NCBI GenBank assembly: GCA_038253555.1
Contig: JBBSGZ010000001.1
Location: 4,941 to 68,940 of the forward strand
DNA from: Thermoanaerobaculia bacterium
GTDB taxonomy: Bacteria; Acidobacteriota; Thermoanaerobaculia; UBA5066; Gp7-AA6
DNA length: 64,000 nucleotides
Reading direction: 5' to 3'
The notes under the pieces were generated by a model that saw nothing but the letters and a program-made list of their open reading frames with translations, searched no databases and was not told the origin of the DNA. Below, in pieces: positions 22,317-51,404 of this stretch. How positions within the stretch are numbered: position 1 is the stretch's first letter; the number at the start of each line of letters is the position of its first letter. Both the position numbers and the translations under genes were made by a program.

Positions 22317-23513
22317 ATGAGGTCTTGGCGCGAACGCCTCGCCGCCGCGGTGGACCTCGAAACGGCGACGCCGGGATCCCCGCTCTCCGCGCTGTGGACG
22401 TTTCCGGCCATGATCGCCTCCGCGTTTCTGGTCGCATGGGGGGCCGAGGCGGCGGAGTTCCTGATGTCCCAGGGACTGGCCCTCGCCGTGCTGGCGCTGG
22501 TGCAGACCTTTCCCGAGTTCGCCGTCGAGGCGGTCATCGCCTGGAAGGCGGGCAAGAACCCGGACCTGGTCCATCTCGCGATCGCGAATTTCACCGGCAG
22601 CCTGCGGCTCCTGACGGGGCTCGGATGGCCCATGATTTACGCGGTCGCGGCCTTCTACTCCCGGCGGAGGCGCAGGACGCCGCTCGGACGGATCCGGCTC
22701 GAGGATGACCACGCGGTGGAAGTCCTTGGACTCCTGCCCCCGCTGGCGTATTTCGTCGTCGTCTGGGCCAAGGGCAGTCTGTCGCTCGCGGATTCCGCCG
22801 TCCTCGCCTCGACCTACGGAATCTATCTCTCGGTACTCTTGAGAATGCCGCCTCGCGAGGAGGCGCTCGAGCAGGACGACGAGGTCCCCGCCGTATCCCG
22901 CTGGGCACTCTCCTTTTCGGGCGGAAAGCGATGGGCCGCGGTGGGCCTCCTTCTCTTAGGGGGCGGCGCGATCATCTTCTTCATCGCGGAGCCCTTCCTC
23001 ACGTCGATGATGGCGTTGGCGACGAGCCTCGGAATGTCCCAGTTCGTCTTCATCCAGTGGGTCGCCCCCTTCCTCTCGGAGTTCCCCGAGAAAACGTCCG
23101 CCTTCGCGTGGGCCCGCAGGATCACGCGAGCCCCGGTCGCTCTCGTGAACATGATCTCTTCCAACATCAACCAGTGGGGGATTCTGTCGGGCCTCCTCGC
23201 CGTCATCTACTGCTGGAGCCACGGATCGACCGACCCGCTCCCGTTCGACGACTTTCAGAGGGGCGAGATCCTTCTGACGATCCTCCAAGCGTTTCTTGGC
23301 TGGCTGTTTTTAGCGTCGATGAGCTTCGAGCGCTACGAGGCAATCGGGCTCTTCGCCCTGTGGGCGATTCAGTTCGTCGTCCCGTCGCTTCGCCACGAGA
23401 TGCTCTTTGTGTATGGTGGGTGGATCGTGATCGAGATCGGGCTCCTCCTGACGGGCCGCAAGAAACTTCTCGCGGTCGCCGCCTTCGAAAGATCGTGGAA
23501 GAGGCGCGGATGA
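22317..23513 (+). CDS. Polytopic membrane protein, possibly cation/Ca2+ exchanger (CaCA)-like
   Basis: About 10 TM helices with two alpha-repeat-like segments (LVQTFPEFAVEAV and APFLSEFPEKTSA). The family call is tentative. Confidence 0.5.
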   Translation: MRSWRERLAAAVDLETATPGSPLSALWTFPAMIASAFLVAWGAEAAEFLMSQGLALAVLALVQTFPEFAVEAVIAWKAGKNPDLVHLAIANFTGSLRLLTGLGWPMIYAVAAFYSRRRRRTPLGRIRLEDDHAVEVLGLLPPLAYFVVVWAKGSLSLADSAVLASTYGIYLSVLLRMPPREEALEQDDEVPAVSRWALSFSGGKRWAAVGLLLLGGGAIIFFIAEPFLTSMMALATSLGMSQFVFIQWVAPFLSEFPEKTSAFAWARRITRAPVALVNMISSNINQWGILSGLLAVIYCWSHGSTDPLPFDDFQRGEILLTILQAFLGWLFLASMSFERYEAIGLFALWAIQFVVPSLRHEMLFVYGGWIVIEIGLLLTGRKKLLAVAAFERSWKRRG

Positions 23514-24703
23514 GCGGGATACGCCTCTCCCGGCGCGTCGAGGAGCTCTGCCCCTCTTCGACCGTCGCCGTCGGCAAAGCGGCGAAGGCTCTCGCCGCCT
23601 CCGGGGTGGACGTGGTGGACTTCGGCCTCGGCGAGCCTGATTTTCCGACGCCCGATTTCGTCGCCCGCGCCGGAATCTCCGCCATCGAAAATGGACGCAC
23701 GAAGTACACGGATACGGCCGGCGCTCCCGCCCTCCGGGAAGCGATCGCGGAGAAATACCGGCGCGAGCAGGGGAGCGGGTGCCTCGCCGAAAACGTCCTC
23801 GTGACCGCGGGCGCGAAGCAGGCCGTTTTCAACGCGTGCCAGGCACTCTTCGACCCCGACGACCAGGTCGCCATGTTCGCGCCCTACTGGGTCTCCTTTC
23901 CGGAGATGGTGCGCCTCGCCGGCGCGCGCCCCGTTTTCGTCGAGACGACGCTCGAGGACGGATGGCGGCCGACGGCGGCGCTTCTGGAGGAGCACGCCGG
24001 TCCGGACGTGCGCGGCGTGGTCCTCAACTCTCCGAACAATCCGACGGGCGCCGTCGTCACCCGGCAGGAGCTCGAGCGAATCCTGGAATGGTGCGCGCGC
24101 CGCGGCGCCGTGCTTATTTTCGACGAGACTTACGACCGCTTTCTGTACGAGGGGCGAGAGCATGTCTCCGCAGCGGCCTTCCGGGAACGATACCCGCAGC
24201 AGATTGTCGTGACCGGCGCGGCGTCCAAAACGTACGCGATGACCGGCTGGAGACTCGGGTGGGCGCTGGCGCCCCGGGAGCTCGTGGCCGCGATGGCCTC
24301 GTACCAGAGTCATTCCACCTCCAACGCGTCTTCCATCTCGCAGGAGGCTGGCCGCCTCGCGCTGGAGGATCTGGAGCGCTCTGACGCCTCCGTCGCCGGC
24401 ATGCTCGCCCAGTACGCGTTACGCCGTACCGCGATGATGGAGGCGCTCGGAGGAATCCGGGACATCGAGACCGCGCCGCCCGAAGGCGCGTTCTACACCT
24501 TCCCCCGCGTGTCGGCCCTTTACGCCCGGATTGGAGTGTCCGGCTCCGTGGAGCTCTGCCGCCGGCTTCTCGCGGAGGCCCACGTCGCCGCGGTCCCGGG
24601 AGAAGCGTTCGGCGACGACGCCTGCATCCGGCTCTCCTTCGCGACGTCCCTCGAGAGGATCCACGAGGGGATGCGGAGATTCACGGAGTGGGCGGCGAAG
24701 TAG
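23510..24703 (+). CDS. Aspartate/aromatic aminotransferase (class I PLP aminotransferase)
   Basis: DFGLGEPDFPTP, NSPNNPTG and SKTYAMTGWRLGW (PLP lysine) are present. ATGA overlap with the upstream gene. Confidence 0.88.
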   Translation: MSGIRLSRRVEELCPSSTVAVGKAAKALAASGVDVVDFGLGEPDFPTPDFVARAGISAIENGRTKYTDTAGAPALREAIAEKYRREQGSGCLAENVLVTAGAKQAVFNACQALFDPDDQVAMFAPYWVSFPEMVRLAGARPVFVETTLEDGWRPTAALLEEHAGPDVRGVVLNSPNNPTGAVVTRQELERILEWCARRGAVLIFDETYDRFLYEGREHVSAAAFRERYPQQIVVTGAASKTYAMTGWRLGWALAPRELVAAMASYQSHSTSNASSISQEAGRLALEDLERSDASVAGMLAQYALRRTAMMEALGGIRDIETAPPEGAFYTFPRVSALYARIGVSGSVELCRRLLAEAHVAAVPGEAFGDDACIRLSFATSLERIHEGMRRFTEWAAK

Positions 24704-27948: not shown

Positions 27949-28932
27949 GTGCCGACCTGCCTGCTGACCGGAGCGACCGGTTTCCTGGGGTCTCACGTGG
28001 CCCGATCCCTTCTCACCCGGGGGTGGAGCATCCGCGCGCTGGCGCGGGGGGGGCCGGAGCGCCTGGGCGCCCTCCCCGCCGCAGGCGTCGAGGCGGTGAC
28101 CGGGGATCTCTCCGCCGCGACGGATTTGAGCGCCGCCGCCGCGGGAGTCGATGCGGTGGTGCACGTCGCCGGGATCACGAAGGCGCGAACGCGCGAGGAG
28201 TATCGGGAGGCGAACGCGCGGGGAACGGCGCGCCTGGTCGACGCGGCGCGGCGCAGCGCCCCCGGGGCTCTCTTCCTCCTCGTCTCGAGCCAGGCGGCCG
28301 CCGGACCGGCGCTGCGAGGCCGACCCGTGGCCGAGGAGGATCCCCCCCGGCCGATCTCATGGTACGGAGCTTCCAAGCGCGAGGGCGAGGAGGAGGTCCG
28401 AGGGGGGTGGCGGGGCCCTTGGATCATCGTCCGACCGTCGGTGGTTTTCGGACCGGGCGACCGGGGGTTGCTCCTCCTTTTTCAGGCCGCGTCGAAAGGG
28501 TGGTTGCCCGTCCCGGCCGGGGATTCCCGGATTCAGTTGATCCGCGCGGAGCGGGCGGCGGACGCCATTGCGGCGGCGGCGGCGCGGCGGGACCTGTCGG
28601 GCCGATCGGGCTTTCTCGCCGATCCGGCTCCGATCGCGATTGCGGAGCTTTCCGCTCTGATCGCGTCTCTGCCACCGAAACGTCCCCGTCTGGTGCCAGT
28701 CCCCCGGGGCGTGGTCCGAGCCGCGGGGGCGATCGAGACCCTCGTCGAGAGCCTGACCCGCCGTTCCCGGCCGTTCAATGCGGATAAAGCCCGGGAGATC
28801 CTGGCGGGCGACTGGGTCTGCGACGGAACGCCCTTTGCGCGGGATCTGGGAGTTCCCGTGGCACCGCGGCTTTTGGAGGACCTGTCGGCGACCTGGGGCT
28901 GGTACGTCCGGGAGGGCTGGCTCTCTTTGTAA
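27949..28932 (+). CDS. NAD(P)-dependent extended-SDR epimerase/dehydratase-family reductase (candidate ceramide/3-ketosphinganine reductase)
   Basis: LLTGATGFLGSHV (Rossmann) and the YGASK catalytic YxxxK are present. The gene lies 62 nt upstream of the SPT-like gene on the same strand. The GTG 27949 start is chosen to avoid overlapping the peptidase gene. Confidence 0.78.
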   Translation: MPTCLLTGATGFLGSHVARSLLTRGWSIRALARGGPERLGALPAAGVEAVTGDLSAATDLSAAAAGVDAVVHVAGITKARTREEYREANARGTARLVDAARRSAPGALFLLVSSQAAAGPALRGRPVAEEDPPRPISWYGASKREGEEEVRGGWRGPWIIVRPSVVFGPGDRGLLLLFQAASKGWLPVPAGDSRIQLIRAERAADAIAAAAARRDLSGRSGFLADPAPIAIAELSALIASLPPKRPRLVPVPRGVVRAAGAIETLVESLTRRSRPFNADKAREILAGDWVCDGTPFARDLGVPVAPRLLEDLSATWGWYVREGWLSL

Positions 28933-29006
28933 AATTTGCTAAGATCGGGTCCGATTCGGGGCGTCCCGCGGGGCGGTCGCCTGTCGTTTTTCGTGTGGGA
29001 GTGAAA

Positions 29007-30242
29007 ATGAGCAAAGTCGCTCCGGTGGAATCCGCGGCGCGGACATCGCCCCTGTTCGACAAGTGCTTCCGGTACGACGATGCGCACCGCATCCAGCGCG
29101 CGGGCCTCTACTCGTTTTTCCGGGTGGTCGATTCGGCGCAGGACCCCGAGGTCGTCATCGGCGGCCGCCGGATGATCATGCTCGGTTCGAACAACTACCT
29201 GGGCCTGACGAACGACCCTCGGGTGAAGGAAGCCGCGATCGACGCGATCCGCAAGTACGGGTCCGGCTGCGCCGGAAGCCGCTTCTTGAACGGAACCCTG
29301 GACCTTCACGTTATCCTGGAAGACAGACTCGCGAGCTTCATGCGCCAGGACGCGGCGGTCGTTTTCGCCACCGGGTTCCAGGTGAACCTCGGTGCGATCT
29401 CCTGCCTGGTCGGAAAAGGCGACAGCGTCTATCTCGACAAGCAGGACCATGCCTGCATCATCGACGGCGCGCGGCTTTCCTTCGGAGAGGTCCGTAAGTT
29501 CAAGCACAACGACGCGGCGGACCTCCGGCGGCAGATGAAAAATGACACCGGGAGTCGCGGAAAGCTCGTGGTGGTCGACGGCGTGTTCTCGATGGAAGGG
29601 GACATTGCGCCCCTGCCGGAGATCGTGGCGGTCGCTCGCGATTACGAGGCGGCCGTCATGGTCGACGATGCGCACGGCGTGGGCGTGCTCGGCCCGACCG
29701 GCCGCGGCACCGCCGAGCACTTCGGCCTGGAAGAGGAAGTCGATCTCATCATGGGGACGTTTTCGAAATCGATGGCGTCGGTCGGGGGATTCATCGCGGG
29801 GGAGTCCACCGTCATCGACTACATCAAGCACCGCGCCCGCACGCTCATCTTTTCGGCGGCGCCGCCGCCGGCCTCCGTGGCCGCGGCCTTGGCGACGGTG
29901 GACATCATGGAGCGCGAGCCGGAACGGCGCGAGCGGCTCTGGCAGAACACCCGGTTCTTTGCCGACGGGCTGCGGTCGCTCGGGCTCGATACGGGAGAAT
30001 CCGAGACGCCGGTCGTGCCCGTCGTCGTGGGGGAGGACTTCACGGCGCTCCAGATGGTCCATCGCCTCCACGAGGAGGGCATCTTCGTCAATTGCGTGCT
30101 CTCTCCCGCGACGCCTCCGGGCCGGGCCCTCATCCGGACGTCCCTGATGGCCACACACACGCAGGATCAGCTCGTGCGGGCCCTCGAGTCGATCGAAAAA
30201 GTGGGGCGAGAAGTCGGGCTGGTCCGCTCCGTCGGCGCTTGA
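29007..30242 (+). CDS. spt: Alpha-oxoamine synthase, serine palmitoyltransferase-like
   Basis: LGSNNYLGL, GSGCAGSRFLNGT and the PLP-lysine motif GTFSKSMASVGGF are present, as is ERRERLWQNTRFFADGLRSLG. These match my recollection of Sphingomonas SPT (GTFSKSVGTVGGF, KRERLWSNARAL) better than BioF/Kbl (GTLSKA/GTLGKA). GGGAG lies 5 nt upstream of ATG 29007. Confidence 0.7.
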   Translation: MSKVAPVESAARTSPLFDKCFRYDDAHRIQRAGLYSFFRVVDSAQDPEVVIGGRRMIMLGSNNYLGLTNDPRVKEAAIDAIRKYGSGCAGSRFLNGTLDLHVILEDRLASFMRQDAAVVFATGFQVNLGAISCLVGKGDSVYLDKQDHACIIDGARLSFGEVRKFKHNDAADLRRQMKNDTGSRGKLVVVDGVFSMEGDIAPLPEIVAVARDYEAAVMVDDAHGVGVLGPTGRGTAEHFGLEEEVDLIMGTFSKSMASVGGFIAGESTVIDYIKHRARTLIFSAAPPPASVAAALATVDIMEREPERRERLWQNTRFFADGLRSLGLDTGESETPVVPVVVGEDFTALQMVHRLHEEGIFVNCVLSPATPPGRALIRTSLMATHTQDQLVRALESIEKVGREVGLVRSVGA

Positions 30243-30321
30243 GGGTTTACCGCCGTCGATTCTGACTGGTCCGCTCTCTCCGCCGGCGGCGGTGGAGCGC
30301 CGGAAACGAGGCGGATGAGCC

Positions 30322-31467
30322 ATGACTGACGCCTCGGTTTCCGTCCGGCCGATCGGACATTCGAAGAAAGAGCTCTCCCGTTTCTTCGACGTTGCCGACC
30401 GGATCTACGCGAGCGACCCGCTCTGGGTCGCCCCGTTGCGCGACGACGTCGCCAAGGTCTTCTCAGCGAAAAACCCCTTCTTCCTCCATGGCGGGATGCA
30501 GCTCTTCGTCGCCTCCCGCGAGGGACGCGATGCAGGGCGGATCGCGGCGATCGTCGACCGGAACCACAACGATTTCCACGGCGATCGCACCGGGTTCTTC
30601 GGCTATTTCGAGAGCGAGAACGACCCCGTCGTGGCGCGGGCGCTCTTCGACGCCGCAGGAGCATGGGTCCGGGAGCGGGGGATGGACACGCTTCGCGGGC
30701 CGGCCAACCCGACCTTGAACGACGAGGCGGGACTCCTGGTCGACGGGTTCGACTCCTCTCCGGTGTTGATGATGACGTACAACCCCCGCTACTACGTGGA
30801 TCTCGTCTCAGGGGCGGGCTTCGCGAAGGTAAAGGATCTTCTGGCGTACTGGTTCGAGATCCAGCCCGGCCCGATGGCGCGGCTGGCCCGGATAGCCGAA
30901 CGGATCGCGCGGCGGGAAAAAGACGTGGTGGTGCGCAAGATCTCGAAGAAGACGCTCGCCGCCGACCTTCCGAAGATCCGCGAGGTCTACAACGCGGCGT
31001 GGGAGAAGAACTGGGGCTTCGTCCCCATGACTCCGGAAGAGATGGACTTCATGGCGAAGCGCCTGAAGCCCCTGGTCGACGAGGACTTCCTGTTCCTGGC
31101 GGAGGCCCGGCGGCCCGACGGCTCCCCCGAGCCCGTCGCTTTCCTTCTGGCACTCCCGGACTACAACATCTCGATGAAGCCGTTGAAGGGCCGCCTCCTT
31201 CCTTTCGGCTGGCTGAAATTCCTGCTCTCCTTGAAGAAGATCCGCTCGATGCGCGTGTTGACTCTCGGGATCAAGAAGGAGTGGAGACTGCGCGGCCTCC
31301 AGGCGGTCATGTTCGAAAAGGGTTTGAAGGCCGCGCTCGATCGCAACTATGTCGGGTGCGAGATGTCGTGGCTGCTGGAGGACAACGACGCGATCATTCG
31401 CTCCGCGGACTTCTGGGGCGGCCGCCTCTACAAGACATACCGTATGTACGACCGGAGGCTGGGGTGA
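30322..31467 (+). CDS. GNAT-fold-like acyltransferase of unknown specificity (candidate bacterial ceramide synthase)
   Basis: 381-aa ORF 79 nt downstream of the SPT-like gene. The C-terminal LTLGIKKEWRLRGLQAVMFEKGL resembles a GNAT motif-A region. No closer family was recognised by eye. Confidence 0.5.
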   Translation: MTDASVSVRPIGHSKKELSRFFDVADRIYASDPLWVAPLRDDVAKVFSAKNPFFLHGGMQLFVASREGRDAGRIAAIVDRNHNDFHGDRTGFFGYFESENDPVVARALFDAAGAWVRERGMDTLRGPANPTLNDEAGLLVDGFDSSPVLMMTYNPRYYVDLVSGAGFAKVKDLLAYWFEIQPGPMARLARIAERIARREKDVVVRKISKKTLAADLPKIREVYNAAWEKNWGFVPMTPEEMDFMAKRLKPLVDEDFLFLAEARRPDGSPEPVAFLLALPDYNISMKPLKGRLLPFGWLKFLLSLKKIRSMRVLTLGIKKEWRLRGLQAVMFEKGLKAALDRNYVGCEMSWLLEDNDAIIRSADFWGGRLYKTYRMYDRRLG

Positions 31468-31484
31468 CGACGGGGTCGTAAGGG

Positions 31485-31562
31485 GTGAGGCGTGAGGGGT
31501 GAGGCGAAAAAAAGAAGAAGCGGCAGGCCCCAGCGATGAGCGCCTGACGCCTCACGCCTCAC
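31485..31562. terminator. Long inverted repeat of GTGAGGC heptamer arrays between convergent GNAT-like and PAP2 genes (candidate bidirectional terminator)
   Basis: gtgaggcgtgagg (31485-31497) is the exact reverse complement of cctcacgcctcac (31550-31562). Flanking gtgaggcg/cgcctgac extends the stem with one mismatch. The A-rich loop is aaaaaaagaagaag. The right arm overlaps the last codons of the PAP2 gene. Confidence 0.5.
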
Positions 31563-32503
31563 GCCTGACGTCTCACGGCCGAGGTGGTCAACCGGTCATA
31601 AATCCGGTCTCCCAGCGGGACCGTCACGGCGGCGAGGATCAACCCGGCCAGCACGTCCACGACGTAGTGGTATCGGCAGTAGACCGTCGACAGGATCAGG
31701 CACGTCGCCACGGGCAGCAACCACCAGAACAGGTCGCGCGCGCGACGAAACGCCACGAATAAGACGGCGGCCGCGAGCATCGTGTGCCCGGAGGGAAAGA
31801 CGTCCAGCTTCGTGTGTTCGAGCTCGTCCAACGTCTGCGCGATGGCCGCCGCCACGGGAGTCAACTCCAGGAAAACCGTCTGCCGGCTCGCGAGGGCAAA
31901 TCGGGGACCGAGCGCCGGCACCGCGAAATACCCGGCATAGGACACGTAGTAGCAGAGGGTCAGCGTGAAAATGTAGCGCCGCAGGGCGGGGATGTCCCGG
32001 ATCCACAGAACGAATCCGAGCGCCAGCGAAATGAAGTAGTAGGTCGTGTAGGCCACGAAGAAGACATCCGTGAGCCACGGCCGGACGAATCTTTCGAGCC
32101 AGACCGTCACGTCCACGCCGAAGAGTGCCCGGTCCGCGGCGATCAGCAGCGCGTCCTTCGCTCCGCCTCGGGCCGCGAAGATGAGCACTCCCAGGGTCTC
32201 GTACAGCACGGGGATGAACGCCGCCGGATAGAAATCGACGAGAAACCGGATGGGTCCGGGCAGCCGTTTCTCCCGCCGGACGAGCGCCGTGATGATGGCG
32301 AGCGCCAGCGCCAGGACGGCATACCGAAGCAGGAGGCCGCCGGGATCCGCAAGGCGGCGATAGAGCACGAGGGTGAGAAGGGACACGGCGCAGAGGGCCG
32401 CGAAGTTGATCGCCTCGAGAGGGCGGAGGATTTTAATGTCCCGCGGCGGCGGCGGCTGGACGGGGCTCCCGGCGCTCGAGGATGAAGATGTCCGCGCCGG
32501 CAC
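31559..32503 (-). CDS. PAP2-superfamily membrane protein with sphingomyelin/IPC-synthase-like motifs
   Basis: Six or more TM helices. FPSGHTMLAAAV and YCRYHYVVDVLAGL match the SGHT and HYxxDV motifs of the SMS/AUR1-type PAP2_C branch. The start is uncertain: GTG 32503 is preferred, and the ORF maximum at 32710 would overlap nfeD. Confidence 0.72.
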   Translation of the reverse strand: MPARTSSSSSAGSPVQPPPPRDIKILRPLEAINFAALCAVSLLTLVLYRRLADPGGLLLRYAVLALALAIITALVRREKRLPGPIRFLVDFYPAAFIPVLYETLGVLIFAARGGAKDALLIAADRALFGVDVTVWLERFVRPWLTDVFFVAYTTYYFISLALGFVLWIRDIPALRRYIFTLTLCYYVSYAGYFAVPALGPRFALASRQTVFLELTPVAAAIAQTLDELEHTKLDVFPSGHTMLAAAVLFVAFRRARDLFWWLLPVATCLILSTVYCRYHYVVDVLAGLILAAVTVPLGDRIYDRLTTSAVRRQA

Positions 32504-32599
32504 GACGGGATTATCGCCGAAGGAGGGTCTTCCGGGCGGGCGTCTTCCCAGAGCGCGCCAGGACCTTTCACGACGGTCGGCACGGTAGACTCCCCGCGC

Positions 32600-33901
32600 A
32601 TGCCGGCGCGGCTCGCCTTCCTGCTTTTTCTCTTCGGGGCCGCCTCGGTCCCCGCGGGCGCCGCGCCCGCCCCGCTCGTCGTCGTGGGGCGGATCGACGG
32701 TCCGGTTCATCCCGCGGCCGCCGCCTACCTTCGCCGGCTGCTTTCAGGGGCGAGGGAGAGCGGCGCGAGCCTCGTCATTTTGGAGCTTTCGACGCCCGGC
32801 GGGCTGCTGACATCGACTCGGGAAATGGCGAGGTCGATTCTCGAATCTCCCGTGCCGGTCGCGACCTTCGTGGCTCCGTCGGGAAGCTCCGCGGCTTCTG
32901 CGGGGTTCTTCCTGCTCCTGGCGGGAGACGTCGCGGCGATGGCGCCCGGGACCAACTCGGGCGCCGCGCACCCGGTCGGGGGCCAGGGAGAAGACCTCTC
33001 GAAAACCATGACCTCCAAGGTCGAACAGGACGCGCGCGCGTTCATCCGCAGCCTCGCGCGGCAGCGGGGGCGCAACGCGGAAAAAGCGGAATCCGCGGTG
33101 ACCTCGAGCGCTTCATTCACCGAGACGGAGGCGAAGGAAGCGGGCCTCGTCGAAATCATCGCCCGTGACCGCGCGGATCTCATCCGGCAGCTCGACGGGC
33201 GAAAGCTCGCGAGGTTAAACGGGTCGTCGCCGCCACTGGCGGTGGCAGGCGCTCGGATCGAAACGCGGGAAATGGGATCGCTCGAGAGGCTGCTCGGGGT
33301 CGTGTCTCACCCGAACATCGCTTATATCCTCTTTCTCGCCGGCCTGGTCGGGCTCTACTTCGAGCTCGCCAGCCCGGGCGCCATCCTTCCCGGGATCGTC
33401 GGGGGAATCTCGCTTCTCCTGGCGCTCTATGCCTTTTCGGTTCTGCCCGTGAATCTCGCCGGCATTGCCCTGATTCTTTTCGCCGTTCTTCTCTTCATCG
33501 CAGAGGTGAAGGTGACGAGCCACGGACTGCTTGCGGTCGGAGGAGCGGTCGCGCTTCTCGCGGGCTCCGCGATGCTGTTTTCCGGACGCGAAGACGGCGC
33601 CGGCTATCGCGTGGATCTCTCGATCGTCGTGCCGGCCGTCGCCTTGACCCTTGCCGTCGTGGGGTTCCTGGCATGGAACACCGTGCGCCTGCGCCATCTA
33701 CCGGTGCGGACCGGCCGCGACAGCGTTCTCGGTCAGAGCGCCGTGGTCGTGAGGCCGATGGGGGAGGAGGGTTTGGGAACCGTCATGGTCCACGGCGAAT
33801 ACTGGGACGCGTCGGGGGCGCCGGCCGCGGCGGCGGGCGAGCGGGTGCTCGTGACGAGAGTCGAAGGCTTCACACTGCACGTCGAACGGAGGCTGTCATG
33901 A
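32600..33901 (+). CDS. NfeD-family membrane-bound ClpP-class serine protease
   Basis: Signal peptide, ClpP-like N-domain ([15 protein letters not shown] ... [14 protein letters not shown]), a central TM bundle and a C-terminal NfeD OB domain (HGEYWDA ... [13 protein letters not shown]). Confidence 0.85.
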
Positions 33902-45895: not shown

Positions 45896-45989
45896 ATTCC
45901 GGGGACGGGCGGCGGCCGGCCCGCGAAGGCGGCCCGGGTCACGACCTCTCGAGCCGGCGCTCTGTTAGATTTTGAGCGGGAGAGTTCTC

Positions 45990-47171
45990 ATGCAGGACAT
46001 CGTGATTCTCGGCGGCGCGCGGACTCCGATGCTGGAGTACAACGGTGCCTTTTCCGACGTTTCGGCGATCGAGCTCGGAGCGCACGCCGCGCGCGAGGCG
46101 CTGGCGCGCACGGGGACCGATCCCGGGCAGATCGACCACGTCATCTTCGGCAACGCCCTTCAGACCTCGGGCGACGCGATTTACGGGGCCCGCCACGTCG
46201 GGCTGAAGGCGGGGGTCCCGAAGGAAGTGCCGGCTCTGACGGTCAACCGGCTTTGCGGATCCGGGTTCGAGTCGATCGTTCAGGCGGCTCACCGCATTCT
46301 CCTCGGAGAGGCGAAGACGGTGCTGGCGGGCGGAATGGAGAACATGTCCGCCGCGCCGCACGTGATCCGGGGTGCGCGAAAAGGGCTTCGCCTGGGGCAG
46401 GGGGCCCTCGAGGACTCGCTGATGGTGGCCCTGCTCGACTCGTACTGCGGCCTCTATATGGCGCAGACGTCGGACCGGGTCGCCGCGAAGTACGGGATCA
46501 CGCGGGAAGAGCAGGACGAGTACGCCCTCTCTTCGCAGCAGAGGGCTGCGGCGGCCCAGAGCGCCTGCCGGCTCTCCGAGGAAATCGCGCCGATCGACGT
46601 CAGGGCGGGCCGGAAGACCGTGCGAATCGAAAAGGACGATCACCTGCGGCCCGAGACGACCCTCGAGGGTCTGGCCGCTCTGACTCCTTCCTTCGGCAAA
46701 GGCGGCCAGGTGACGGCCGGAAACGCCTCCGGCATCGTGGACGGGGCGGCGTCCGTCGTGGTCACCTCGGCGGAGGAAGCCCGCGCCCGCGGGAAGAAGC
46801 CGCTCGGCCGGCTGATCGGATGGGCCGTCACGGGAGTGGAGCCGGAGCTCATGGGTCTGGGGCCCGCGCCCGCCGCTCGCGCCGCTCTCGAGAAGGCGGG
46901 TCTCCGTCAGGATCAGATCGACCTCTGGGAGATCAACGAGGCTTTTGCGGGCCAGATCCTGGGTGTCGTTCGCGAGCTCGGGCTCGATCGCGAGAAGTTG
47001 AACGTCAACGGAGGCGCGATCGCGCTCGGGCATCCGCTCGCCGCGACGGGCACCCGCTGCACGCTGACGCTTTTGAAGGAAATGCGGCGCCGCGGCGTCC
47101 GCTACGGCCTGGCGGGCGCGTGCATCGGGGGCGGACAGGGAATCGCGGTGGTGCTCGAAGCGGGATCGTGA
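45990..47171 (+). CDS. Acetyl-CoA C-acetyltransferase (thiolase II)
   Basis: LTVNRLCGSGFES (active Cys), NVNGGAIALGHPLAATG and GCIGGGQG are present. GGGAGAG lies upstream of ATG 45990. Confidence 0.93.
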   Translation: MQDIVILGGARTPMLEYNGAFSDVSAIELGAHAAREALARTGTDPGQIDHVIFGNALQTSGDAIYGARHVGLKAGVPKEVPALTVNRLCGSGFESIVQAAHRILLGEAKTVLAGGMENMSAAPHVIRGARKGLRLGQGALEDSLMVALLDSYCGLYMAQTSDRVAAKYGITREEQDEYALSSQQRAAAAQSACRLSEEIAPIDVRAGRKTVRIEKDDHLRPETTLEGLAALTPSFGKGGQVTAGNASGIVDGAASVVVTSAEEARARGKKPLGRLIGWAVTGVEPELMGLGPAPAARAALEKAGLRQDQIDLWEINEAFAGQILGVVRELGLDREKLNVNGGAIALGHPLAATGTRCTLTLLKEMRRRGVRYGLAGACIGGGQGIAVVLEAGS

Positions 47172-47249
47172 GGAGCGGCGCTGGACTGGACGGAACGGAT
47201 CCTCGGATTTCCGGTCCGCACCGCGGCCGTCGCCTCTTTTCTCGAGGAC

Positions 47250-47507
47250 TTGAAGGCGCGGCGGGCGGCCGACTTGAACGGCGTCCTCGTGACGTTCAAC
47301 GACGGCAGCCTCTGCCGTGACGCGCTCCGTCACTGGCTTCTGAAAGAATGGATCGTGATCGCGCCCCACTCGCCGCTGACGGCGCTCCCGGGGCGCGGGT
47401 TCACGCGGGATTTAACGCTCAGGCAGTTCTGCGGGGAAAACGCGGCCGCGCCGGAAAGCGCGCCCGACAGAGAAGAGGGAGGATGGGACGGCGATGACGA
47501 TTCGTAA
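47250..47507 (+). CDS. Possible small hypothetical protein in the thiolase-hbd gap
   Basis: The frame is open from the thiolase stop (47172) to 47507 and reads protein-like in part (LNGVLVTFNDGSLCRDALRHWLLKEWIVIAPHSP). There is no convincing RBS or ATG, and it overlaps the hbd start by 14 nt. Confidence 0.3.
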   Translation: MKARRAADLNGVLVTFNDGSLCRDALRHWLLKEWIVIAPHSPLTALPGRGFTRDLTLRQFCGENAAAPESAPDREEGGWDGDDDS

Positions 47508-48354
47508 AGTGGGCGTCCTCGGGGCCGGTTTGATGGGTTCGGGTATCGCGGAAGTTGCGGCCAGGAGCGGCTACGAGACGGTCGTGCGCGAGGTTTCGGA
47601 CGACCTCGGCCGGAAAGGGATCGCGAGGATCGAAGGGTCCCTGGCGAAGGCGGTCGAGAAAAAGAAGATGACCCCGGAGGAGAAGGACGCGGCGCGCGAG
47701 CGGCTCTCCACCACCACGAAACTGTCGGACCTCGCGGACTGCGACATCCTCGTCGAAGCCATCATCGAAAACCTCGACCTTAAAAAGGAGACGTACCGGG
47801 AGCTCGACCGGATCTGCAAGGCCGAGACGATCTTCTGCTCGAACACGTCTTCGCTGACGATTACCGAAATGTCCGCCGTGACGTCGCGGGCGGACCGATT
47901 TGCCGGCCTTCATTTCTTCAACCCGGTGCCGGTCATGAAGCTCGTCGAGGTGGTCCGGACGATCGCGACTTCGGAAGAGACTTTCGAAAGGGTGTTTCAG
48001 TTCGCGCAGTCCCTCGGAAAGGATCCGATCCGCGCGCGCGACAACTCGGGCTTCGTCGTCAACCGGCTCCTCGTTCCGTATCTCCTCGATGCCGTGCGCG
48101 CCTTAGAAGAGGGGGTCGGAAGCCCCGAGGACATCGACAAGGGAATGGAGCTCGGCTGCGGCCATCCCATGGGGCCGTTGAAGCTGCTCGACTTCGTCGG
48201 TCTCGACACGACCTTCTACATCGCTCAGATCATGTTCGACGAATACCGGGAAAAGCGGTTCGCGCCGCCGCCGCTCTTGAAGCGCATGGTGCTGGCGGGG
48301 CGCCTGGGCCGCAAGTCCGGCCGCGGATTCTACGAATACGGCGGCGCAAAGTGA
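47494..48354 (+). CDS. hbd: 3-hydroxybutyryl-CoA (3-hydroxyacyl-CoA) dehydrogenase
   Basis: VGVLGAGLMGSGIA (Rossmann), SNTSSL and GFVVNRLL motifs are present. Confidence 0.92.
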   Translation: MTIRKVGVLGAGLMGSGIAEVAARSGYETVVREVSDDLGRKGIARIEGSLAKAVEKKKMTPEEKDAARERLSTTTKLSDLADCDILVEAIIENLDLKKETYRELDRICKAETIFCSNTSSLTITEMSAVTSRADRFAGLHFFNPVPVMKLVEVVRTIATSEETFERVFQFAQSLGKDPIRARDNSGFVVNRLLVPYLLDAVRALEEGVGSPEDIDKGMELGCGHPMGPLKLLDFVGLDTTFYIAQIMFDEYREKRFAPPPLLKRMVLAGRLGRKSGRGFYEYGGAK

Positions 48355-49133
48355 GCGAGCTCGTGCGGGTCGACACCGTCGACGGGATCCGAACCCTCAC
48401 CGTCCACCGTCCGGAGAAGTTGAACGCGCTGAATGGCCACGTGCTCGAAGCGCTCGACGCCGAAGTGATCGAAGCCCGGCGTGACGCGACGCTGCGCTGC
48501 CTGATCATCACCGGCGCCGGAGAGAAGGCGTTCATCGCGGGAGCGGACATCGGGGAGCTCGCAAAGCTGACACCGGTCGAGGGCCGCGAGCACGCCCGGC
48601 AGGGCCAGGCGGTTCTCGACCGGATCGAGAACCTCGCAATCCCGACGATTGCCGCCATCAACGGCTTCGCGTACGGCGGGGGACTCGAGCTGGCGATGGC
48701 CTGCACCCTCCGCGTCGCATCGGAGAACGCCCGAATGGGACTGCCGGAAACCTCTCTCGGCATAATTCCCGGCTACGGCGGAACCCAGCGCCTGGCGAGG
48801 CTCGTCGGCCGCGCCCGGGCGTACGAGCTCGTCCTGACGGCGTCCAAGGGCGTGTCGGCGGCCGACGCGGAACGGATCGGGCTCGTCAACCGGGTCGTGG
48901 CGGCGGGTCAGGCGCTTTCCGCGGCGCTGGACATGGCGCGCGCGATCGCCGCCAATGGGCCGGCGGCCGTGCGTTACGCCCTGGACGCGATCCGCAGCGG
49001 CATCGAAATGCCTTCCGCGGAGGGCAGATTGCTCGAGGCGACCCTGTTCGGTCTCTGTGCCGCGACGTCGGACATGAAGGAAGGCATGACGGCATTCCTG
49101 GAGAAACGCCCCGCGAAGTTCACCGGGTCTTGA
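48351..49133 (+). CDS. Enoyl-CoA hydratase (crotonase)
   Basis: ITGAGEKAFIAGADI and INGFAYGGGLELAMACT crotonase-fold motifs are present. 4-nt overlap with hbd. Confidence 0.9.
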   Translation: MSELVRVDTVDGIRTLTVHRPEKLNALNGHVLEALDAEVIEARRDATLRCLIITGAGEKAFIAGADIGELAKLTPVEGREHARQGQAVLDRIENLAIPTIAAINGFAYGGGLELAMACTLRVASENARMGLPETSLGIIPGYGGTQRLARLVGRARAYELVLTASKGVSAADAERIGLVNRVVAAGQALSAALDMARAIAANGPAAVRYALDAIRSGIEMPSAEGRLLEATLFGLCAATSDMKEGMTAFLEKRPAKFTGS

Positions 49134-49192
49134 GGCCCCCTGCCCGGCGAAACGCCCGGCCCTGCTAAACTGAATACCGAGAAGGACGCACC

Positions 49193-50443
49193 GTGCACCC
49201 GCCCGAATCCGACCTGATCTACGACTGGAACCGAGCCGGCGGCTCCGTGTTCCCCGCCCGCGGCGTCGTGGAGCTCGACGACGAGACCCTGCGCGACGGC
49301 CTGCAGTCGCCGTCGGTCAAGAGCCCCTCGATAGAACACAAGCTGAAGCTCCTCCACCTGATGGAGGCGCTCGGGATCGATTCGGCCGACATCGGCCTGC
49401 CCGGGGCGGGCCCGCACGTGGTCGCGACGGTCACGCGCCTCGCGCGGGAGATCGTCGATTCGGGGATGAAGATCCGACCCAACTGCGCGGCGCGGACCGT
49501 CGCCGCCGACATCATTCCGATCATCGAGATCTCTCAGAAAGTCGGCATTCCGATCGAAGTCTCCTGCTTCATCGGCTCCTCCCCGATCCGGCAGTACGCT
49601 GAGGACTGGGACCTCGACCGCATGCTGCGTCTCTCGGAGGACGCCGTGTCGCTGGCGGTCAAGGAGGGCCTTCCGGTCATGTACGTGACGGAAGACACCA
49701 CGCGCGCGCACCCGGACCACATCCGGCAGATGTACACCACGGCGATGCGGGCCGGCGCCCAGCGTGTCTGCGTCTGCGACACCGTCGGCCACGCGACACC
49801 GAACGGCGTGCAGAACCTGATCCGCTTCGTCGTGCAGATGGTGAACGCCGTGAATCCCGAGGTGAAGGTGGACTGGCACGGCCACCAGGATCGCGGGTTT
49901 GGCGTCACGAACGCCCTCTGGGCGCTCGAGGCCGGGGCCCACCGCGTGCACGCCTGCGCGCTCGGGATCGGCGAGCGCGTCGGAAACACGCCGATGGATC
50001 AGCTTCTCGTCAACCTCCAGCTCCTCGGTTGGATCGACCGCGATTTGACCCGGCTTCACGACTACTCCTCGCTCGTCTCGGAGGCCACCGGAGTTCCGAT
50101 TCCGGACAATTACCCGGTGGTAGGGCGCGATGCGTTCCGGACCGGAACGGGAGTCCACGCGGCCGCGATCATCAAGGCGCGCAAAAAGGGGGACGAGTGG
50201 CTCGCCGACCGGGTGTACTCCGGGGTCCCGGCCGCGATGATCGGCCGCCGGCAGGTGATCGAGATCGGCCCCATGAGCGGCCTGTCGAACGTGCACTGCT
50301 GGCTTCAGGACCGGGGCCTCGAGGCGCGCCCCGAGGTCGTCGAGTCGATTTTTCGCCGCGCGAAGGAGAGCGACAAAATCCTCGCCGACGAAGAGATCCT
50401 TGCCATCGTTCACGCGCTCGCTGACGCGCCCACGGCCCATTAA
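49193..50443 (+). CDS. DRE-TIM (HMGL-like) aldolase, 2-isopropylmalate/homocitrate synthase family, short form
   Basis: DETLRDGLQSP, CDTVGHATP, HGHQDRGFGVTNAL and GIGERVGNTPMD motifs are present. It lacks a LeuA-type C-terminal regulatory domain. Confidence 0.7.
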   Translation: MHPPESDLIYDWNRAGGSVFPARGVVELDDETLRDGLQSPSVKSPSIEHKLKLLHLMEALGIDSADIGLPGAGPHVVATVTRLAREIVDSGMKIRPNCAARTVAADIIPIIEISQKVGIPIEVSCFIGSSPIRQYAEDWDLDRMLRLSEDAVSLAVKEGLPVMYVTEDTTRAHPDHIRQMYTTAMRAGAQRVCVCDTVGHATPNGVQNLIRFVVQMVNAVNPEVKVDWHGHQDRGFGVTNALWALEAGAHRVHACALGIGERVGNTPMDQLLVNLQLLGWIDRDLTRLHDYSSLVSEATGVPIPDNYPVVGRDAFRTGTGVHAAAIIKARKKGDEWLADRVYSGVPAAMIGRRQVIEIGPMSGLSNVHCWLQDRGLEARPEVVESIFRRAKESDKILADEEILAIVHALADAPTAH

Positions 50444-51404
50444 GACGAAGACACCCCGCGACGCGGTCCCCGCGGACGCCCCGCGTTCGGAATTTCTGCA
50501 GCGGCAGCTCCCCACGTTCCTCGACCATCTCGCGGTCGAGCGCGGCCTTTCACCGGCCTCCGTCGGCGCGTACGGGAGCGATCTGTCCGCGTTCGGCCGC
50601 TTTCTCGCGGCGTCCGGCGTGACGGCACAGGGCGCGACGCGCGCGGAGCTCGGCCGGTACTTCGGCTCGACGCGCGCGCGCGGTCTCTCCGCCCGATCCG
50701 CCTCACGCGCGCTTTCGGCGCTGCGGGCGTTCTATTCGTATGCCGCCCTTCACCTCGGGTTCACCGAGGATCCCACGATCGACCTGACGAATCCGAAGCT
50801 CGGATTCTCCCTTCCCAAAGCGCTGTCGGAAGCCGAAGTCGTCGCGCTGATGAACGCCCCCGACGAGGCGACCTCTCTCGGCCTGAGAGACCGCGCGATG
50901 CTGGAACTGCTTTACGCGTCGGGGCTGCGGGTCTCGGAGCTCGTCGGCCTGCCGCGGGCCGCGATCGATCTGCCCGCCGGGATCCTGCTCGTGAGAGGCA
51001 AGGGGGGAAAGGAACGGCTCGTGCCGTTCGGCGGGAGCGCGACGAAGTGGCTTCGCCGGTACCTCGAGGAGGCCCGGCCTGCCCTGGACACCCGCAGGTC
51101 CGCGGTCCTTTTTCTGTCTTCGCGCGGAGCGGCGATGACGCGCCAGCGGTTCTGGCAGATTCTGGAGGGATACGGCCGCTCGGCAGGGATCCGGTCCCCG
51201 CTCACGCCGCACGGGCTGAGGCACTCGTTCGCCACCCACCTCCTGGAGCACGGCGCCGACCTGCGGGCGCTGCAGATGATGCTCGGCCACTCGGACATCT
51301 CGACGACATCGATTTACACGCACGTCTCGCGCGGACGTCTGCGGCGGGTTTACGACGAATTTCATCCGCGCGCCAGCCGCTCGAGGAGAGGGAAGGTTCG
51401 TTGA
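50400..51404 (+). CDS. xerD: Tyrosine site-specific recombinase XerD-like
   Basis: LLYASGLRVSELVGL, HGLRHSFATHLLEHGADLRALQMMLGHSDISTTSIYTHV (R-H-R-Y catalytic set) are present. The only start candidate is TTG 50400, which overlaps the upstream gene by 44 nt. Confidence 0.82.
   Translation: MPSFTRSLTRPRPIKTKTPRDAVPADAPRSEFLQRQLPTFLDHLAVERGLSPASVGAYGSDLSAFGRFLAASGVTAQGATRAELGRYFGSTRARGLSARSASRALSALRAFYSYAALHLGFTEDPTIDLTNPKLGFSLPKALSEAEVVALMNAPDEATSLGLRDRAMLELLYASGLRVSELVGLPRAAIDLPAGILLVRGKGGKERLVPFGGSATKWLRRYLEEARPALDTRRSAVLFLSSRGAAMTRQRFWQILEGYGRSAGIRSPLTPHGLRHSFATHLLEHGADLRALQMMLGHSDISTTSIYTHVSRGRLRRVYDEFHPRASRSRRGKVR

Follow-up and report, generated by a model that had tools for sequence, protein, structure and literature searches.

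Three adjacent genes on the forward strand of a 64-kb stretch of DNA (hereafter the window, meaning the whole stretch analysed) are predicted to form a chromosomal dihydroceramide biosynthesis cluster of a bacterium of the Acidobacteriota, probably of the Thermoanaerobaculia, a reading to which we attach a probability of roughly 0.8. The genes encode an extended short-chain dehydrogenase/reductase (SDR), an alpha-oxoamine synthase (AOS) of the serine palmitoyltransferase (SPT) type and a tandem GNAT protein of the YghO family; all three products are homologous to proteins of proteobacterial sphingolipid loci, their genes are linked across many phyla, and a fourth gene, encoding a PAP2-type membrane protein, lies next to them (Table 1). 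In the pathway that we infer from these families, the SPT would convert L-serine and a long-chain acyl-CoA to 3-ketosphinganine, the GNAT protein would N-acylate the amino group with acyl-CoA, and the SDR would reduce the 3-keto group with NAD(P)H to afford dihydroceramide, onto which the PAP2_3 protein would probably transfer a phospho-alcohol head group from a glycerophospholipid, comparable to Aur1, BT_1522 and the sphingomyelin synthases. Whether acylation comes before reduction is a matter of dispute even for Caulobacter and cannot be told from the sequence.

Analysis of the SPT product revealed the pyridoxal phosphate (PLP)-lysine motif GTFSKSMASVGGF, an ERRERLW region and a match to Pfam Aminotran_1_2 (6.4e-59), with the lysine motif GTFSKS aligning to GTFSKS of the Sphingobacterium multivorum SPT. 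Among the NCBIfam models, NF047600 (SerpalmtaseCFB) scored best with 556.9 bits, 107 bits ahead of the BioF/Kbl-related TIGR01825 (449.6 bits) and about 150 bits ahead of Kbl (406.8 bits) and BioF (400.8 bits). The best match in the PDB was the S. multivorum SPT (3a2b/8guh), with 454.6 bits in a gap-free alignment over 386 amino acids, followed by Thermus BioF/Kbl (340.7 bits), Sphingomonas SPTs (~300 bits), Kbl (~280 bits), cysteate-C-fatty acyltransferase (262 bits), BioF (~228 bits), ALAS (208 bits) and CqsA (140 bits). Sequence identity decreased correspondingly from 51% for the S. multivorum SPT to 43% for Thermus BioF/Kbl, 34% for E. coli Kbl and 32.5% for E. coli BioF. In a bootstrapped neighbour-joining (NJ) distance tree (100 replicates) of 60 aligned AOS sequences, built without ALAS, CqsA and CapB, of which ALAS and CqsA are covered by the PDB ranking, 100/100 replicates placed the window SPT together with the S. 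multivorum SPT in a group that left out the BioF/Kbl references. All SPTs together excluded these references in 87/100 replicates, and within the SPTs the window protein was set apart, in a bacterial subgroup other than that of the Sphingomonas/E. coli-type Spt, in 95/100. The gene product is, as judged from these comparisons, a predicted SPT-type AOS.

For the third gene product, a profile search of Pfam and NCBIfam returned no match, and source databases refer to the members of its family only as 'N-acetyltransferase', although the family comprises 7336 clusters (50% identity) at E ≤ 0.001 and 1438 at E ≤ 1e-30. Its AlphaFold2 (AF2) model, obtained with a predicted local distance difference test score (pLDDT) of 96.1 and a predicted template modelling score (pTM) of 0.92, retrieved tandem-repeat GNATs, including 7q3a and 2wpw, as top Foldseek matches (E 5e-16, TM 0.6-0.7); by protein name, the closest structural neighbours were MAB_4324, the clavulanate tandem GNAT, MshD and a glucosamine N-acetyltransferase, and FemX, MprF and N-myristoyltransferase were placed lower in the list. 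Full-length homologs recovered by tblastn from annotated plasmid and chromid records included E. coli YghO and an N-acetyltransferase of Sphingomonas parapaucimobilis. Pairwise blastp showed 34% identity to YghO over essentially the full length (E 4e-75), and the similarity to the Sphingomonas sphingolipid-locus N-acetyltransferase amounted to 36% identity over positions 5-380 (E 2e-71). The gene yghO (ECD_02850) is in turn the counterpart of Caulobacter aca, CC_1154 (PMC9386255). Fold prediction and homology thus point to a YghO-family tandem GNAT of the bCerS family with predicted N-acyltransferase activity.

The first gene product combines an N-terminal Rossmann motif, TGATGFLG (GATGFLG at residues 8-14), with a catalytic YGASK motif, and its Pfam matches are Epimerase (2.7e-27), NAD_binding_10 and 3Beta_HSD. 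In blastp comparisons it shares 28.5% identity (E 2e-31) with the epimerase encoded within the E. coli yghO/spt cluster, the CerR equivalent termed 'epi' (epi = CC_1164 = ECD_02852; PMC9386255), and 30% identity (E 5e-21) with the Sphingomonas NAD(P)H-binding protein encoded next to acp-spt. The best NCBIfam scores were weak and far below threshold (HpnA 89 bits, OleD 78 bits), and the best PDB match was weak as well (66 bits). A hidden Markov model based on 33 SDRs that are linked to SPT in other phyla (<42% identity) together with the E. coli and Sphingomonas locus proteins assigned 301.7 bits to the window SDR, a score that is indicative and not independent because the members of the profile were chosen by their similarity to this very protein. 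No N-terminal signal peptide is visible in the window SDR or in its E. coli and Sphingomonas homologs, all of which open directly with the Rossmann motif, and CerR of Caulobacter is periplasmic. Overall, the protein is a predicted cluster-linked reductase of the CerR type.

With these assignments, the enzymatic part of an earlier, sequence-only reading of the same DNA held up well. That reading had recognized the extended SDR by its GATGFLG and YGASK motifs, had separated the AOS from BioF and Kbl on account of GTFSKSMASVGGF and ERRERLW, had described the third protein as GNAT-like, which the structure model confirms, and had likened the trio to the enzyme classes of the ceramide route in Caulobacter, a likeness now substantiated by homology to the E. 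coli and Sphingomonas locus proteins. Of the outcomes that would have refuted that reading, the three open to sequence comparison, namely an AOS inside the BioF or Kbl clades, a GNAT-like protein unrelated to bacterial ceramide synthases and a trio not co-conserved in relatives, all turned out in its favour.

In Caulobacter crescentus, the ceramide pathway, reportedly the subject of studies by Olea-Ozuna in 2021 and Stankeviciute in 2022, involves Spt (CCNA_01220), bCerS (CCNA_01212) and CerR (CCNA_01222) and, like the window, combines an AOS-type Spt with a YghO-family N-acyltransferase and an epimerase/dehydratase-family reductase. The locus comprises bcerS (CCNA_01212), lptG2 (01213), lptF2 (01214), spt (01220), acp (01221), cerR (01222) and acps (01223). 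Its order from bcerS through lptG2, lptF2, spt and acp to cerR is mirrored in Sphingomonas, where genes for an N-acetyltransferase, a desaturase, LptG, LptF, an ATP-binding protein, Spt, an acyl carrier protein (ACP) as well as the NAD(P)H-binding protein follow one another. In the E. coli record NZ_MG591698.1 (L082, 1322-9101), yghO has as neighbours genes for fatty acyl-AMP ligase, epimerase/dehydratase, ACP and AOS proteins and for paralogs of LptG and LptF, which makes up a complete set resembling that of Caulobacter and is a sphingolipid locus that has already been described (PMC9386255; bioRxiv 10.64898/2026.04.12.717747) and for which the RefSeq product names remain generic.

Whereas the three Caulobacter genes are spread over ccna_01212-01226, those of the window are contiguous, and the 64-kb window lacks the dedicated ACP (AcpR), the acyl-ACP synthetase (AasR), the LptF2/G2 transporter paralogs and the cpgABC head-group genes of Caulobacter. 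The sequence-only reading had named ACP and ACP synthetase as extra genes of Caulobacter, but their absence here is not unusual: only in alpha-, beta- and gamma-proteobacteria are they found together with spt, and the SPT subgroup of Bacteroidetes and delta-proteobacteria, which uses acyl-CoA, has as a rule no linked ACP or ACP synthetase (PMC9386255). Because the window SPT belongs to the latter subgroup, as illustrated by its 51% identity to the S. multivorum SPT, the lack of these genes is to be expected. In Bacteroides fragilis, the cerS knock-out (BF9343_4218) accumulates 3-KDS and the cerR knock-out (BF9343_4240) accumulates keto-dihydroceramide, phenotypes that fit an acylate-then-reduce route. 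According to a study of Black Sea metagenome-assembled genomes (MAGs), the Spt, CerS and CerR genes of Bacteroidota are not clustered (PMC11334938), in contrast to the tight same-strand unit found here in a different phylum. The same study finds genes for Spt-like, bCerS and CerR proteins co-localized in MAGs from a wide range of phyla, takes this co-localization as its definition of 'Spt-like', and extends the phyla that have Spt-like genes from 9 to 40. The window represents one more such Spt-bCerS-CerR cluster. The supplement text of this study, which deals with 38 phyla, does not name Acidobacteriota or Thermoanaerobaculia, and the passages on the clusters do not mention a PAP2 neighbour.

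Conservation of the arrangement was assessed in one genome per GTDB species, with a closer 12-sequence alignment as the query, the 52-sequence alignment being too diverse. The scan yielded 80 loci with GNAT homologs (43-88% identity), in which neighbouring genes were identified by tblastn with the window proteins. The loci span Acidobacteriota, Thermoanaerobaculia, Verrucomicrobiota, Gemmatimonadota, Eisenbacteria, Ignavibacteria, Zixibacteria, Planctomycetota, Nitrospiraceae, Calditrichia, Myxococcota, Bacteroidota and others. An SPT-like gene is present at a distance of at most 6 kb from the GNAT homolog in 53 of the 80 loci, and in 38 of the 50 loci that offer at least 3 kb of flank on both sides. 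SPT and SDR genes both lie nearby in 41/80 loci, a PAP2 homolog does so in 26/80 loci from several phyla, and all four genes are found together in 20/80. This linkage was observed in Acidobacteriota, Verrucomicrobiota, Gemmatimonadota, Eisenbacteria, Ignavibacteria, Planctomycetota, Nitrospiraceae, Myxococcota and Bacteroidota. The SDR-SPT-GNAT core occurs in every one of the loci L001-L007, and in related Acidobacteriota/Thermoanaerobaculia (L001-L003, L006, L007) the complete order M1 peptidase (-), SDR (+), SPT (+), GNAT (+), PAP2 (-), NfeD (+) is maintained. Gene orders differ by phylum and include SDR+ SPT+ GNAT+, SDR- SPT+ GNAT+, SPT+ GNAT+ SDR+ PAP2+ and GNAT+ PAP2- SDR- SPT-, a variability of the kind that arises when the genes are held together by selection and not by recent common descent. 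As the order recurs in relatives and the linkage in many phyla, we conclude that the three-gene arrangement is not a chance juxtaposition.

Several loci depart from the common pattern. In an Akkermansia muciniphila MAG (L017, 2149-4291) and in a second locus (L008, 1843-3927), the GNAT homolog and the PAP2_3 gene occur only as a pair, surrounded by genes for oxidoreductases of the GFO/IDH/MocA type, for an amidohydrolase and for dehydrogenases, and the available flank contains neither an SPT nor an SDR gene; the substrate of these pairs may be something else than de novo sphingoid bases, or spt may be located elsewhere in the genome. Other Verrucomicrobiota (L009, L016, L020, L021, L031) have the order GNAT+ PAP2- SDR- SPT-. 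An Archangiaceae MAG (L072, 4726-9683) shows the order SPT, GNAT, SDR, GNAT, and the two paralogous GNAT genes around the SDR may mean that this myxobacterium has two different acyl-chain specificities. A 'Candidatus Rokubacteria' MAG (L005, 7264-10700) contains the SDR-SPT-GNAT trio with an SPT that is 77% identical to the window SPT and nested in the acidobacterial SPT clade of the NJ tree, which indicates lateral transfer or a mis-binned contig. GNAT homologs on Roseomonas plasmids, which carry the annotation 'dATP pyrophosphohydrolase', adjoin genes for NTP-transferases.

The PAP2 gene, which is convergent to the GNAT gene, encodes a protein with matches to PAP2_3 (67.9 bits, cut-off 27), PAP2 (43.7 bits) and, marginally, PAP2_C (27.7 bits, cut-off 27), and all 120 homologs listed carry PF14378. 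PAP2_3 and PAP2_C are the families to which Aur1/Ipt1 and the sphingomyelin synthases belong. A bacterial precedent is BT_1522, a homolog of AUR1 that acts as the phosphatidylinositol (PI)-dihydroceramide synthase of B. thetaiotaomicron. The annotated 275-aa product (P0271) is identical to our query over the aligned region. The long open reading frame (ORF) adds an Arg/Gly/Pro-rich low-complexity N-terminal extension of 108 amino acids (32387-32710, minus strand), which overlaps the NfeD ORF (32600-33901, plus strand) at the 5' end of the latter; such an extension is typical of ORF over-extension in high-GC DNA, and the source annotation uses an internal start. The motifs PSGH and HYxxD are kept in at least 90% of 27 cluster-linked homologs, the conserved residues being F305-P306-S307-H309 and H348-Y349-D352 in long-ORF numbering (C2 SGH and C3 HxxxD motifs). 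The AF2 model is of moderate quality (pLDDT 79.5), and its top two Foldseek matches are yeast Aur1 (9ivc) and an inositol phosphorylceramide (IPC) synthase-ceramide complex (9vj4), both weak (E ~2e-3, TM ~0.5). The window protein thus has in common with the Aur1/BT_1522 IPC synthases and the sphingomyelin synthases the PAP2_3/PAP2_C matches, the PSGH and HYxxD motifs and the character of a multi-helix membrane protein, but phmmer returned nothing relevant among PDB sequences, so that it differs from the IPC synthases in showing no similarity to solved structures detectable in this way. Among the scanned ORFs of the window, none was recognized as a gene for an inositol-phosphate synthase or for a PI synthase. 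From its domain matches and fold model, the protein is a candidate ceramide phospho-head-group transferase, with about even odds against a lipid phosphatase. Extending this to the four-gene unit, we tentatively propose, at somewhat less than an even chance, that the Aur1-like PAP2 proteins encoded beside the bCerS homolog in Acidobacteriota, Verrucomicrobiota, Gemmatimonadota, Eisenbacteria and Bryobacterales might be ceramide phospho-head-group transferases of a widespread bacterial clade that is so far uncharacterized.

Several observations weigh against a dihydroceramide cluster with an associated head-group transferase. The SPT product stays below the NCBIfam SPT equivalog cut-offs (NF047600, 556.9 vs 640; NF047599, 414.3 vs 500; NF047603, 338.8 vs 670), these models being lineage-specific and an SPT model still ranking first, and sequence cannot tell which amino acid the AOS uses (serine, alanine, glycine or cysteate). 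The bridge to characterized bCerS and CerR proteins consists of the E. coli/Sphingomonas locus proteins and the literature. Moreover, 24 of the 80 GNAT homologs have no SPT gene within 6 kb, so that the YghO family may extend beyond ceramide synthesis and is probably broader. For the PAP2 protein, Foldseek is weak already at the top of the list, with PgpB phosphatases in third and fourth and SMSr in fifth position, and the only NCBIfam matches are weak phosphatase models (LpxE 31.8 bits, SepP 19.8 bits). As AOS specificity is unreadable from family membership, the trio could make a non-serine, sphingoid-like lipid, the AOS joining acyl-CoA to cysteate (sulfonolipid/capnine) or to alanine or glycine (1-deoxy or 1-desoxymethyl bases) and the product then being reduced and N-acylated; the sub-cut-off SPT score, the detectable relationship to cysteate-C-fatty acyltransferase structures (28eh, 262 bits; 7u7h, 246 bits) and the acceptance of alanine by known bacterial SPTs would agree with such a product. 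We nevertheless regard it as improbable, since the similarity to a bona fide SPT (454.6 bits, 51% identity, gap-free) lies far above that to the cysteate enzymes, the window AOS nests with bCerS/CerR-linked AOS genes and the S. multivorum SPT, and no cysteate synthase gene was seen among the scanned neighbours. More remote still is an assembly of chance neighbours that lacks any lipid function, in which an ordinary synthase of the Kbl/BioF type would lie beside a sugar-nucleotide epimerase and an acetyltransferase unrelated to them. The HpnA- and OleD-like names given to the SDR, all far below their cut-offs, the missing curated family for the GNAT protein and the 449.6 bits of TIGR01825 on the AOS could be read in this way, but the cross-phylum linkage (53/80 loci for SPT, 41/80 for SPT and SDR), the separation of the AOS from the BioF/Kbl references in the NJ tree and the homology of all three proteins to experimentally defined sphingolipid-locus genes of E. 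coli, Caulobacter and Sphingomonas have already largely refuted it.

The dihydroceramide assignment of the trio would be unaffected if the PAP2 protein were a lipid phosphatase, acting for example on lipid A 1-phosphate, C55-PP, PGP or ceramide-1-phosphate, a possibility that deserves serious consideration even though we lean against it. Besides the LpxE and SepP models as sole NCBIfam matches and the PgpB structures in the Foldseek list, the source annotation 'phosphatase PAP2 family protein' is in line with this function. A transferase is favoured by PAP2_3 as the best Pfam match together with the PAP2_C match, by the two IPC synthases heading the fold matches and by the linkage of the gene with ceramide genes in several phyla; in addition, the KxxxxxxRP (C1 phosphatase) motif is not visible in the PAP2 translation, while PSGH and HYxxD are conserved.

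The layout of the cluster is consistent with its genes being real and co-transcribed. Codon usage in the SDR, SPT and GNAT ORFs shows a bias typical of real genes (GC content at third codon positions 0.81-0.87), and the GC content of the window, about 68%, is flat across the region. Spacers of 62 and 79 nt had been given in the sequence-only reading; the SPT-GNAT spacer indeed measures 79 nt, and the SDR-SPT spacer measures 62 nt when counted from the GTG at 28995 but 74 nt from the ATG at 29007, which that reading had used as the start of the product and which has GGGAG located 6 nt upstream. Upstream, 43 nt separate the SDR gene from a divergent M1-peptidase gene. Downstream, a hairpin made of repeated GTGAGGCG-like units folds with -53.4 kcal/mol (z -6.4; 0/200 shuffles equally stable), and its 3' arm overlaps the final 7 nt of the PAP2 ORF; it is a probable bidirectional terminator that closes the three-gene unit. 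Terminator-like matches in the SDR-SPT spacer were rejected, as folding of this spacer revealed no significant structure (z +1.1). Given the operon-like layout and the single strong terminal hairpin, SDR, SPT and GNAT look like one transcription unit.

Table 1. Features of the predicted dihydroceramide cluster and the adjoining PAP2 gene; positions refer to the window.
Feature	Position	Strand	Description
cerR-like SDR gene	27949..28932	+	327 aa; extended SDR (NAD-dependent epimerase/dehydratase family) reductase
spt gene	29007..30242	+	411 aa; PLP-dependent alpha-oxoamine synthase, serine palmitoyltransferase type; alternative GTG start 28995
bcerS-like gene	30322..31467	+	381 aa; YghO-family tandem-GNAT N-acyltransferase (predicted)
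hairpin	31482..31565		84 nt, GC-rich, between the convergent bcerS-like and PAP2 genes
PAP2_3/PAP2_C membrane protein gene	31559..32386	-	275 aa per source annotation; long ORF to 32710

The genes around the cluster are housekeeping genes (M1 peptidase, NfeD, SPOR, LipA, Lnt, PrfB), and neither the gene scan nor the GC profile of the window revealed an integrase, a transposase or a compositional break at the cluster. A mobile-element origin was rejected in view of the flat GC content, the housekeeping neighbours and the flanking synteny kept in relatives; with synteny retained and with neither mobility genes nor a compositional break, the cluster is a vertically inherited chromosomal cluster and not a visibly mobile module. 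The description of the trio as a minimal, transferable module from a group not usually discussed as a sphingolipid producer, which had been part of the sequence-only reading, needs to be revised on all three counts: the convergent PAP2 gene is co-conserved as a fourth member (26/80 loci), the composition and flanks argue against mobility, and ceramides have been reported for the acidobacterium Solibacter usitatus (Halamka et al. 2024), in addition to the roughly 40 phyla with Spt-like genes given in the Black Sea study (PMC11334938).

Elsewhere in the window, an upstream aminotransferase ORF (22931-24703) is of the aspartate-aminotransferase type and not an AOS, and it was excluded from the system. 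A run of beta-oxidation/ketogenesis-type genes (45972-50443; thiolase, 3-hydroxyacyl-CoA dehydrogenase, enoyl-CoA hydratase, HMGL-like), followed by a gene for a Xer-type tyrosine recombinase (50400-51404), is unrelated to the cluster but a possible source of its acyl-CoA pool.

Earlier publications already cover the enzymes, the way in which their genes cluster and how widely they occur among phyla, and the understanding of the pathway is unchanged by our analysis; modestly new are the tight three-gene arrangement in a Thermoanaerobaculia-like lineage and the recurrent Aur1-like PAP2 neighbour in several phyla. A compact three- or four-gene, acyl-CoA-dependent cassette would be convenient for heterologous expression, and the head-group transferase candidate it provides adds to this modest practical value. 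If the PAP2 proteins do form a clade of ceramide head-group transferases, abundant soil and sediment phyla would make phosphosphingolipids by means of a portable SDR-SPT-GNAT-PAP2 set, and the lone GNAT-PAP2 pair of Akkermansia-like genomes would work on a substrate that does not derive from de novo sphingoid synthesis. At the level of a genomic prediction, the Acidobacteriota/Thermoanaerobaculia lineage studied here would make dihydroceramide-based lipids, which adds to the growing case for bacterial sphingolipid sources in soils and sediments.

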